Origin: a virus
Lineage: Duplodnaviria; Caudoviricetes
Length of the DNA stretch: 64,000 nucleotides
IMG/VR virus record: IMGVR_UViG_3300046739_000039
Location: 1 to 64,000 of that record
Direction: 5' to 3' (one strand)
Shown here: positions 18,389-24,307 of the stretch, piece by piece
How positions within the stretch are numbered: the stretch's first letter is position 1
How the letters are laid out: the number at the start of each line of letters is the position of its first letter
Notes under the pieces: model-generated
Database searches by the model: none
What the model was told of the DNA's origin: nothing
The model's input: the letters and a program-made list of their open reading frames with translations, nothing else
Made by a program: the position numbers and the translations under genes

Positions 18389-19975
18389 ATGGGTAAGTTC
18401 AACAAGCCTGTACGTACGGGAGTTACTTCTCCTGTAAAGACCACTAAGTCGGCTCTCAATGCAGACTTCAAGGCGGGTTTTGCGCGCACTCAGCAGAGTG
18501 AGCTGTTTCTACTTGCCGTTTCCAACTTTGTTGGTAAGGACACGTTTTACGAGACTGCCCAGAACCGTGATGACCGTTTCGCTAAGCTTTCTGCGGAAGT
18601 TGCTGTTGCGGACCCTCAGTGGTTCGGTGGCTTTGTCGGTTGGCTCCGTAACGACGCGTTCATGCGCTCTGCGTCCGTTGTAGCGGCTGTTGAGGGTGCT
18701 AAGGCACTCTACGACTCCGGAGTCATGAACGGGACTCCTAGGGCCCTTGTAGCAGCGTCTCAGGCGCGTGCTGATGAGCCTGGAGAGGTGCTGGCTTACT
18801 ACGAGGCTAAGTACGGTAAGAACTTCCCTGCCTTCCTTAAGAAGGGTGTTGCAGACGGCGCTAAGCGTCTCTACAACGAGTACTCTCTTCTTAAGTACGA
18901 CACTGACTCTAAGGGCTACCGTTTTGCGGATGTTCTTCAGTTGACTCACGCAAAGGCTGAGGGCACTAACCAGAATGCTCTGTTCAAGTACGCTTTGGAC
19001 CGACGTTATGGTAATGGCTCTATTGAAGGCCACGATTACGCGCTTGACATGATTAGCACTCGTGCTAACCTGATGGCTGCGCCTGTCGAGAAGCGTAAGG
19101 CTCTGATTGGTACTCAGGCCGGTATGCAGACTCTGTCTCGTGCCGGATTCACCTGGGAGGCGCTGTCTGGATGGCTTCAGGGTCCTATGGATGCTACAGC
19201 TTGGGAAGCGGTTATTCCTAACATGGGTTACATGGCGTTGCTCCGCAACCTGCGTAACTTTGTGGATGCGGAAATCTCTGCTACTGTTCTTCGCAGGGTT
19301 CTTAACAAGCTTGCTGATCCTGAGCAGGTTGCAAAGAGCAAGCAGTTCCCTTTCCGATTCCTTGCGGCTTACCAGGCTAACAAGGGTAACCTGAAGATCG
19401 CTTCGGCACTTGAGGAAGCTCTTGAGGCATCTCTGAGCAACGTTCCTTCTCTGAAGGGTCGTACTCTGATCCTGGTTGACCGTTCTGGTTCTATGTTTGA
19501 CACCAATGGTGGCACTCAGGGACTTGACAGAGCTGACACGGCTGCTATCTTTGGTTCTGCGCTTGCGCTTCGTGCCGAGGATGCTGACCTGGTTCAGTTC
19601 GGGTCTTCTTGGGGTGGACGTAAGCCTTACGAGGCTGTAACCTTCAAGAAGGGTAATTCTCTTCTGCCTATGCTGGACAAGTTCCGTGACATGGGTGGAA
19701 CCGATACCCGAGCTGCTGTTCAGGGGAGCTTCAAGAACCACGACCGTATTATCATCGTAACTGATGAGCAGTACAATGGTTGGGGTGGAGATCCGCTTAC
19801 CTCTGTTCCTGCTAACGTTCCTGTCTACACCTGGAACCTTGGCGGTTACCGAGTAGCCCAGAGTGAGTCTGGTTCTAAGAAGCGTCACACCTTCGGTGGA
19901 CTGACTGACAAGGGTTTCCAGATGATCCCTCTCATTGAGGCGGGTCAGAGCCAGCAGTGGCCTTGGGAAAGCTGA
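18389..19975 (+). CDS. rsr: Ro60/Rsr RNA-binding protein (TROVE plus vWA domains)
   Basis: SELFLLAVSNFVG..TFYE, RADEPGE.LAY, TWEALSGW, MGYMALLRNLRNF, SKQFPFRFLAAY, vWA MIDAS LVDRSGSM...GGTD...TDEQ; AGGAGG RBS at ATG 18389. Confidence 0.93.
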   Translation: MGKFNKPVRTGVTSPVKTTKSALNADFKAGFARTQQSELFLLAVSNFVGKDTFYETAQNRDDRFAKLSAEVAVADPQWFGGFVGWLRNDAFMRSASVVAAVEGAKALYDSGVMNGTPRALVAASQARADEPGEVLAYYEAKYGKNFPAFLKKGVADGAKRLYNEYSLLKYDTDSKGYRFADVLQLTHAKAEGTNQNALFKYALDRRYGNGSIEGHDYALDMISTRANLMAAPVEKRKALIGTQAGMQTLSRAGFTWEALSGWLQGPMDATAWEAVIPNMGYMALLRNLRNFVDAEISATVLRRVLNKLADPEQVAKSKQFPFRFLAAYQANKGNLKIASALEEALEASLSNVPSLKGRTLILVDRSGSMFDTNGGTQGLDRADTAAIFGSALALRAEDADLVQFGSSWGGRKPYEAVTFKKGNSLLPMLDKFRDMGGTDTRAAVQGSFKNHDRIIIVTDEQYNGWGGDPLTSVPANVPVYTWNLGGYRVAQSESGSKKRHTFGGLTDKGFQMIPLIEAGQSQQWPWES

Positions 19976-20022: not shown

Positions 20023-20094
20023 GGGGCTATAGTGTTAATGGCAACACGGAAGTTTTGCATACTTCAATTCGGGGTTCGAATCCCCGTAGCTCCA
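20023..20094 (+). tRNA. tRNA-Ala(TGC)
   Basis: GAAGT-TTTGCAT-ACTTC; G3:U70. Confidence 0.9.
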
Positions 20095-20189
20095 CATCGC
20101 AAATCCTGAGAGCGGGCTAAACCGGTTACGCCCTTAAGGGATGATTCCAGAGATGGTGACTACACTGGATTAACAAAGTAGTCACACCT

Positions 20190-22174: not shown

Positions 22175-22252
22175 GCCCCAGTATCGCCCCCGGCTTCTAA
22201 CCGGTCTTTAAAAGCGTAATGGAGTATGCAGGTTCGAATCCTGTCTGGGGTA
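22175..22252 (+). tRNA. atypical tRNA-Arg(TCT) lacking a normal D arm
   Basis: acceptor GCCCCAG/CTGGGGT; CCGG-CTTCTAA-CCGG; T arm GCAGG-TTCGAAT-CCTGT; 8-nt D region and 23-nt variable region. Confidence 0.65.
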
Positions 22253-22685: not shown

Positions 22686-22756
22686 GCCCGATTAGCTCAA
22701 TGGGAGAGCGGCGGTTTTACACACCGTATACGGGGGTTCGATTCCCTCATCGGGTA
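22686..22756 (+). tRNA. tRNA-Val(TAC)
   Basis: GCGGT-TTTACAC-ACCGT. Confidence 0.9.
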
Positions 22757-22927
22757 CGTGGCAAATAAACCAGAATATCCAAAACCAGCATTTCCTAAAC
22801 CAACTCAACCAAAGGGACCAAGTGGTCCGCCTAGAGGATACGATGAAGACTGACAAGGCCCTAGGGTCTCTATGGATAGTAATGGCAGTAGGTATCCTTT
22901 ACTGTCTAGCACATTTGAATGGCTAAT

Positions 22928-23005
22928 GGGTCTGGACGGTGTCGACGTAGGTGAAAGCCGCACGCGGAACGCTCACGGACAGGGGTTCGATTCCCCTCAG
23001 ATCCA
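22928..23005 (+). ncRNA. miniature tmRNA-like RNA (tRNA-like domain only, no mRNA domain)
   Basis: GGGTCTG/CAGATCC acceptor with G3:U70 and A73; stemless D loop GACGGTGTCGAC; GGAC-AGGGG-TTCGATT-CCCCT; only about 30 nt between the halves. Confidence 0.75.
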
Positions 23006-23066
23006 CGGCTGGTTATGCAGGAATTACCCCGTACCTGCGTGCTCAACGGTTAAGAGCCCAGCGCTT

Positions 23067-23144
23067 GCGCATTGACCTAATCTGATGGGATTCAGAGACA
23101 GTCTGCAAAACTGTTGGTTACCGGTTCGATTCCGGCAGTGCGCT
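23067..23144 (+). tRNA. atypical tRNA-Cys(GCA), 8/4 fold
   Basis: ACAGT-CTGCAAA-ACTGT; 8-bp acceptor GCGCATTG/CAGTGCGC; 4-bp T stem; U73. Confidence 0.75.
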
Positions 23145-23362: not shown

Positions 23363-23446
23363 GGAAGAGAAGCAAATGGTTAGCGGCTACGCTGGAAACG
23401 TAGTAAGGCTCTCAAGGCCGAGCGGGTTCGATTCCCGTCTCTTCCG
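23363..23446 (+). tRNA. tRNA-Ser(GGA)
   Basis: CTACG-CTGGAAA-CGTAG; long variable arm. Confidence 0.88.
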
Positions 23447-24275: not shown

Positions 24276-24307
24276 GGCCCTACATGTTTGGGATGTAGGG
24301 CCTTTTT
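24276..24307 (+). terminator. intrinsic terminator
   Basis: GGCCCTACAT/ATGTAGGGCC followed by TTTTT. Confidence 0.8.

Follow-up and report, generated by a model that had tools for sequence, protein, structure and literature searches.

The window analyzed here covers the first 64 kb of an IMG/VR phage record of 111,671 bp, the closest GenBank relatives of which are the Streptomyces phages LuckySocke, Alone3, GiJojo, BRock, and pSt2308. Its tRNA array (12.5–24.3 kb) holds ~30 tRNA genes, all on the + strand. One short gene of the array, separated by 170 nt from tRNA-Val(UAC) upstream and by 61 nt from a tRNA-Cys-like gene downstream, is read here as a miniature tmRNA (mini-tmRNA) consisting of the tRNA-like domain (TLD) only. 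Its parts and its upstream neighbor are listed below, with conservation taken from the homologs described later and with scores from the covariance model R1.

22686..22757, + strand: tRNA-Val(UAC), the upstream neighbor of the mini-tmRNA in 9/9 Streptomyces-phage relatives examined
22928..23005, + strand: predicted mini-tmRNA (TLD-only tmRNA) gene, 78 nt to the discriminator A73; R1 score 97.9 bits
22928..22934, + strand: acceptor stem, 5' strand GGGUCUG, pairing with 22998–23004; G1, G2, and G3 invariant
22935..22945, + strand: stemless D-loop analog GACGGUGUCGA, which contains a conserved GG and supplies the GA for the tandem G.A; its counterpart in the tmRNA consensus is GAucuGGaUUCGA, and homologs keep GG and UCGA
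22946..22953, + strand: helix 2a, 5' strand CGUAGGUG, forming 8 pairs with 22970–22977
22954..22969, + strand: apical module, composed of an AAAG internal loop, a CCG/CGG 3-bp stub, a CACG cap, and a 3' loop AA
22970..22977, + strand: helix 2a, 3' strand CGCUCACG; 8 covarying pairs
22978..22980, + strand: GAC, in which G-A are the tandem G.A partners and C is the T-arm linker ('GGAC' signature); aligned to the tmRNA consensus cGGAC in the RF00023 alignment
22981..22997, + strand: T arm AGGGG-UUCGAUU-CCCCU; 5 pairs, 4 of them compensatory, 97.4% paired
22998..23005, + strand: acceptor stem, 3' strand CAGAUCC (U70 at 23002), and A73 (23005); TCCA in 31/31
3' of 23005, + strand: the bases after A73 are CGG; no encoded CCA

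The Rfam tmRNA model RF00023 matched positions 22928–23008 (+) with 55.4 bits (gathering score 47, E = 5e-19). The alignment covers model positions 1–374 with both tmRNA ends in the standard 5'→3' order; 304 interior positions are replaced by 12 nt, leaving ~300 model positions absent. The aligned parts are the acceptor stem (GGGUCUG/CAGAUCC with G3:U70 and A73), the D-loop analog ending in UCGAC, the base of helix 2a, the GGAC segment, and the T arm. A genuine phage tRNA-Ala reached only 23.5 bits on RF00023, and the mini-tmRNA match thus stands far above the level of chance or of a generic tRNA. The coordinates, strand, and tmRNA-like ends given in the initial annotation of the locus were borne out by this match. 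The same annotation had looked to both Rfam and ARAGORN for confirmation, which came from Rfam and not from ARAGORN; the latter made no call for the mini-tmRNA and reported no tag.

With just 16 nt between the helix 2a strands (22954–22969), the gene has neither an mRNA-like domain nor a resume codon, and no tag ORF in frame. The pseudoknots PK1–PK4 are missing, and the interior has no room for them. An anticodon arm and a D stem are also lacking. The RF00023 alignment and the tag-less ARAGORN result thereby agree with what had been claimed at the outset about the tag ORF, the pseudoknots, and the anticodon arm. A tRNA-Ala identity was rejected on account of the missing anticodon arm and D stem and the silence of ARAGORN; the genuine tRNA-Ala(UGC) lies at 20023–20095. 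A two-piece or permuted tmRNA of the alpha-, beta-, cyano-, or mitochondrial type was rejected because the ends are in the standard order, and RF01849–51 and RF02544 gave no match over threshold in the window or the remaining genome. RF00023 found no second tmRNA over the cut-off in the whole 111,671-bp genome, and the remaining 48 kb yielded zero matches to any Rfam family or in ARAGORN. There is therefore no separate coding piece in this genome, a point the initial annotation had singled out for a search. The sole match to the apical block in a search of the window for an antisense partner was the mini-tmRNA itself. These results support the assignment of 22928–23005 as a miniature tmRNA gene, with a predicted product that comprises the TLD only and ends in an alanine-accepting stem.

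Blastn detected unannotated ~81-nt homologs in 8 further Streptomyces phages. Pattern scans of IMG/VR added 22 contigs with mini-tmRNA homologs, and a scan of GTDB genomes added 2 credible MAG contigs; a match in a Paraburkholderia MAG (L037) was dismissed as a chance pattern match without T arm or acceptor stem. Jay2Jay, a BE1 phage, carries a diverged copy at the same place. The final set held 31 distinct sequences of 80–85 nt from Streptomyces phages, IMG/VR contigs, and the 2 MAG contigs. The initial annotation had named a recent deletion from a full tmRNA as the outcome that would overturn its reading; this does not fit, as several phage lineages share the 80–85-nt form at the same place. 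R1 was built from 6 gap-free 81-nt members with a hand-drawn structure, using Streptomyces-phage and IMG/VR members only. It recovered the 31 distinct members with 52–102 bits, and the controls scored 31 bits (tRNA-Ala) and 29 bits (the 3' part of a true tmRNA).

The fold was examined on the alignment of the 31 homologs. Standard pairs were formed in 96.4% of the pair cells, and compensatory changes were found at 17 of the 23 pairs (195 cells). None of 500 shuffles matched the observed covariation score, and pairing fell to 41–53% in the slid-partner control. The single-sequence minimum free energy fold of the mini-tmRNA gave z = −0.71 and thus says little about the structure. In the acceptor stem, G1:C72 (31/31), G2:C71 (31/31), and G3:U70 (30/30) are fixed, the TCCA 3' end is invariant (31/31), and A73 never varies; pairs 4–7 covary with compensatory changes. 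This contrast indicates selection on the identity set of alanyl-tRNA synthetase (AlaRS), and the invariant alanine identity suggests that charging matters. The T loop (GTTCgA.TC) is nearly invariant. The alanine identity (G3:U70/A73) pointed out in the initial annotation and the SmpB-region signatures (the UCGAC...GGAC tandem G.A and helix 2a) are conserved among the homologs.

Part of the originally drawn interior did not survive the alignment. The proposed GGU-GAAA-GCC and GCG-GAA-CGC hairpins were paired in only 48% and 59% of the cells, respectively, with essentially no compensatory change at either. What the alignment supports is a helix 2a of 8 bp that leads through a conserved internal loop to a capped 3-bp stub. 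All 8 pairs of helix 2a show compensatory changes (93.8% of cells paired). The stub (CCS/SGG) is paired in 98.9% of the cells, and its third pair switches between G:C (18 members) and C:G (11 members). The apical pattern G-AAAR-CCS-(4–5 nt)-SGG-NA-C is kept in almost all 31 members, including the Mycobacterium phage DS6A. In the window, the apical block with its closing G...C reads GAAAGCCGCACGCGGAAC, and it is identical in 5 of the 8 aligned Streptomyces-phage relatives. In tmRNA, helix 2a has 8 supported pairs preceded by tandem G.A pairs, which in E. coli are 19-GA-20/333-GA-334 (PMC1168896). The Rfam tmRNA consensus continues after helix 2a with a GAa loop and then the C-rich/G-rich helix 2b (gcGAacacccc...gggggg-g-agg), a junction that resembles the purine-rich loop and the C-rich/G-rich stem of the mini-tmRNA. 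We infer that the apical module may be a retained tmRNA helix 2a/2b junction.

The initial annotation implied that the gene is new in kind. This does not hold, since tmRNA database papers already list 'Mycobacterium phage DS6A (TLD only)' (PMC4131195; PMC11915505). The DS6A element (tmID 11587/Phage__Mycobacterium.9) lies at NC_023744.1 28478–28560. It scored 43.2 bits on RF00023, below the Rfam cut-off that the window copy exceeds with 55.4 bits, and it reached 62 bits on R1 (E = 1e-14), a model built without it. The two elements are of similar length (83 nt for DS6A, 81 nt for the window gene) and share the G3:U70/A73 acceptor, the stemless D loop, helix 2a, and the T arm, and neither has a tag frame or pseudoknots. 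Their apical blocks (GAAAACCGCACGCGGUAC in DS6A, GAAAGCCGCACGCGGAAC in the window) are versions of a shared module. The shared architecture and apical block and the R1 score thus make the window gene a member of the DS6A-type kind; judged by sequence, it is the same kind of gene as the published 'TLD only' tmRNA. The carriers differ in the host genus (Mycobacterium for DS6A), in phage type, and in genome size (60 kb for DS6A vs 112 kb). In DS6A, the TLD-only element is the sole RF00023 match, whereas the searches of the other phages also pick up tRNAs. LuckySocke, the closest annotated relative, has a tail sheath, ~35 tRNAs, and Ro60. The Streptomyces copies always follow tRNA-Val(UAC), which sets them apart from DS6A, and they are not reported in the TLD-only tmRNA literature examined.

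Compared with the standard one-piece tmRNA (RF00023), the mini-tmRNA retains helices 1, 2a, and 12, the alanine set, the UCGAC...GGAC tandem G.A, and the 8-bp length of helix 2a. It is devoid of the mRNA-like domain, resume codon, tag frame, and pseudoknots (~300 nt), and no tag or stop codon could be read from it. CDS-less tmRNAs are known from jakobid and oomycete mitochondria (RF02544) and from ~65-bp Mallomonadaceae plastid genes in two plastids (PMC11915505, PMC3590771). These resemble the mini-tmRNA in having only the tRNA-like part and no tag frame, with SmpB encoded elsewhere. They are reduced cellular or organellar genes that serve their own ribosomes, whereas the mini-tmRNA is an additional copy that a virus brings to a host with an intact tmRNA, and its gene order is standard. 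The full-length phage tmRNAs of cluster C1 (e.g., Bxz1) and of the BE cluster are likewise tmRNA-derived and lie in phage tRNA islands (PMC4131195, PMC5764925), but they measure 269–285 nt or longer, and the copy of the phage Tomas reads as carrying a tag that ends in ALAA.

A BE-type variant of the mini-tmRNA occurs in 82 GenBank Streptomyces phage records. Among the matches listed, it is mostly unannotated, and two copies stand under a tRNA-Leu or tRNA-Val label. Overall, the family is present in over 90 GenBank Streptomyces phage records, almost always without annotation. Three BE phages carry both forms: Tomas (NC_070781.1; full tmRNA 97147–97421, mini copy 88030–88110), Jay2Jay (NC_029098.1; 97949–98233 and 87505–87584), and Riptide (PV654398.1; 94862–95130 and 83298–83377). 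Their full tmRNAs (269–285 nt, 93–104 bits) lie ~10 kb from the mini gene, and that of Tomas reads as carrying the ALAA-ending tag. The BE-phage mini copies have lost the UCGAC/GGAC signatures and score ≤33 bits on RF00023 and 60–77 bits on R1. As the two forms lie ~10 kb apart in one genome, the mini form must be a gene in its own right rather than an allelic variant. The coexistence in Tomas, Jay2Jay, and Riptide probably reflects a single evolutionary event, because the three phages belong to one clade. The breadth of the family, its coexistence with a full tagged tmRNA, and the invariant alanine identity go beyond what has been published.

The mini-tmRNA has no encoded CCA and only a C after the discriminator, as do almost all the neighboring tRNAs. 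The 1 kb upstream of it contains no promoter-like site, and the sole + strand terminator-like site in the scanned stretch (24276–24302) lies just past the last tRNA of the array. No SmpB gene was found in the source phage genome or in 5 carrier phage genomes. An all-vs-all blastp of the ORFs within 5 kb of 26 elements revealed no conserved protein neighbor beyond close relatives. The lack of a phage SmpB, a shared protein neighbor, and an antisense partner suggests that the mini-tmRNA works with host factors. In the relatives, the tRNA island also holds RNA ligase, phosphoesterase, and Ro60 genes. A Ro60-like (TROVE) gene of ~590 codons is found inside the tRNA island of the window (~18.3–20.0 kb, TROVE match 19190–19378), with homologs in BRock, Tomas, and LuckySocke.

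Three further tRNA-like genes in the array were missed by ARAGORN. The gene downstream of the mini-tmRNA, 23067–23144 (+), combines an enlarged D region with an anticodon loop reading GCA (Cys) (Rfam tRNA, 32.5 bits); BRock has a tRNA-Cys(gca) annotated correspondingly. The sequence at 22175–22252 (+) (Rfam tRNA, 30.0 bits) is 91–94% identical to unannotated stretches in the BE phages Francob and Enygma. At the place corresponding to 23363–23446 (+) (Rfam tRNA, 37.9 bits), LuckySocke has tRNA-Ser(gga).

The spacer between tRNA-Val and the mini-tmRNA is filled by an unannotated, proline-rich micro-ORF, 22758–22853 (+), which starts with GTG 1 nt past the discriminator and C of the tRNA-Val and encodes a peptide of 31 aa (VANKPEYPKPAFPKPTQPKGPSGPPRGYDED). 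By tblastn, it has matches in GiJojo (L022:281–361) and pSt2308 (L025:318–398) only, where the peptide has 26 aa and follows V-T-x-KPSYPRPAFPKPxQPKGPTGPGR. The synonymous/non-synonymous codon differences for the three pairs (10/6, 7/7, and 8/2) suggest a selected peptide. No Shine–Dalgarno sequence precedes the micro-ORF, and it may therefore be leaderless after processing of the tRNA 3' end. Its YPRP motif is reminiscent of insect proline-rich, ribosome-targeting peptides. The corresponding spacers of Alone3 (L021:269–394) and LuckySocke (L001:2360–2501) have no micro-ORF; what they contain is a tRNA-like stretch of 126 nt, interrupted by a long insert and bearing no annotation (Rfam tRNA, 37.5 bits).

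Bacteria rescue stalled ribosomes mainly by trans-translation. With the above results in hand, we consider it fairly probable that the window carries a functional TLD-only (CDS-less) tmRNA gene of the DS6A family, the product of which competes with the host tmRNA for SmpB. The mini-tmRNA would be transcribed with the + strand tRNA array and excised by tRNA-processing enzymes, and the host would add CCA, as for the CCA-less neighboring tRNAs. Host AlaRS could then charge it via the invariant G3:U70/A73, and its contacts with host SmpB would involve helix 2a, the tandem G.A pairs, and a D loop of the tmRNA type. In doing so, it would draw SmpB away from the host tmRNA; a charged copy would in addition contend with the latter for EF-Tu and stalled ribosomes. 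Lacking a resume codon and a tag frame, it could not complete trans-translation; the predicted outcome is less tagging and proteolysis of the products made during infection.

The database papers, which cite Mao et al. 2009, report strong inhibition of the E. coli tmRNA by 'a similar molecule', whether it can be charged or not, and suggest titration of SmpB as the possible cause (PMC4131195; PMC11915505); the experiments concerned that molecule in E. coli, as distinct from the window RNA and its host. The functions proposed in the initial annotation, titration of SmpB or rescue without a degradation tag, match this published hypothesis for the DS6A RNA. The published inhibition needs no chargeability, yet the alanine set is invariant, so an active, charged role would fit better than a passive sponge. 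The BE phages also carry a full tmRNA, whose action a pure SmpB sponge would block too. The loss of the UCGAC/GGAC signatures from their mini copies likewise speaks against competition for SmpB, a reading that gives the conserved apical module no role. Together, the fixed alanine identity and the side-by-side occurrence with a full tmRNA argue for more than passive titration.

These two observations bear on the main rival, active rescue of stalled ribosomes without a tag, which we regard as rather unlikely. Here, the Ala-charged mini-tmRNA would enter stalled ribosomes with host SmpB and EF-Tu and accept the nascent chain; the peptide would be freed untagged, by drop-off and peptidyl-tRNA hydrolase or by an ArfB-type release, or would receive a short alanine tail over repeated rounds. 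Peptidyl transfer to a TLD-only tmRNA occurs in vitro (Shimizu and Ueda 2006, cited in PMC3895274), and a charged mini-tmRNA could therefore enter stalled ribosomes. Invariance of the AlaRS identity set in 30–31/31 members, against covariation of the other acceptor pairs, is what an essential role of charging would produce. A second rescue route also explains more readily than a sponge why the BE phages have a full tmRNA as well. Mitochondrial CDS-less tmRNAs found together with SmpB are assumed to assist still where mRNAs are incomplete, and tags of just 2 aa (Ala-Ala) occur naturally (PMC11915505). Against this stand the facts that no release mechanism is known for a peptidyl-TLD without a resume or stop codon, that no protein neighbor is conserved across lineages, and that the sole experimental report describes inhibition (PMC4131195). 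If true, tag-less rescue would give the phage a cheap recycling of ribosomes without degradation tags.

A bolder proposal, in our estimate quite unlikely, makes the mini-tmRNA an alanine-charged, template-less actor on stalled ribosomes and not a passive SmpB sponge. Together with host SmpB, it would repeatedly add Ala, giving a short tail, or free the chains untagged, and the apical module would be needed on the ribosome or SmpB. Its function would be distinct from that of tmRNA, because the BE phages keep the mini copy beside a full tagged tmRNA; the micro-ORF might perhaps be coupled to it.

The other readings are weak. It is improbable that the RNA acts as bait, and not on trans-translation itself, against host defenses that sense or cut tmRNA or tRNA-like RNAs (SmpB-like domains, tRNA-directed nucleases). 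The gene content of the relatives' tRNA island (RNA ligase, phosphoesterase, Ro60) is of a sort commonly interpreted as counter-defense, and defense systems having SmpB-like OB folds with predicted tmRNA binding have been described (PMC11090510). This case is purely circumstantial, with no linked defense target identified; DS6A carries the family in a 60-kb genome without a tRNA-scoring RF00023 match or a Ro60 gene, and bait would leave the invariant alanine identity unexplained. We rejected, as very improbable, a Y-RNA-type partner of the phage Ro60 protein. The window phage, BRock, and Tomas encode a TROVE/Ro60 protein, and bacterial and phage YrlA RNAs mimic tRNA and carry a tRNA-like module (PMC4201824); however, two carriers, DS6A and a 205-kb phage, have no TROVE gene, the ends pair into an aminoacyl-type acceptor stem of 7 bp, with G3:U70/A73, where a Y RNA would have its Ro-binding stem, and no Y-RNA family matched over threshold at the mini-tmRNA. 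Hardly credible is a non-functional sequence, be it left over from the decay of a tmRNA or tRNA-Ala, a tmRNA fragment of the attP type, or a piece of a small coding ORF: a window ORF (22872–23075) overlaps the mini-tmRNA, and a hypothetical CDS of GiJojo (gp44, PP725410.1 17023–17265) starts 2 nt before the homologous stretch and runs across it, probably a spurious call over an RNA gene, but conservation follows the RNA pairing (195 compensatory cells), ORF starts differ between relatives, a 1-nt indel between the close relatives Alone3 (80 nt) and LuckySocke (81 nt) would frameshift a CDS, both tmRNA ends are present in the standard order, which distinguishes the gene from attP fragments, and the same 80–85-nt form recurs across distant phages. 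The covariation and the indel thus exclude a coding or decayed sequence.

The present results turn a single published oddity (DS6A) into a defined, covarying family of at least 31 distinct sequences. A dedicated family model is needed for annotation, because ARAGORN misses the window copy and the BE variants fall below the Rfam tmRNA cut-off. To our knowledge, little is known of how phages handle trans-translation. Many of the carriers are SEA-PHAGES isolates that grow on laboratory Streptomyces strains, and three features invite experiments: the alanine identity set, which is invariant; the apical module, which is conserved; and the BE cluster, where the mini form naturally coexists with a full phage tmRNA. 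With this family, it becomes practical to ask what a virus does to tmRNA function, be it blocking, hijacking, or replacing it.
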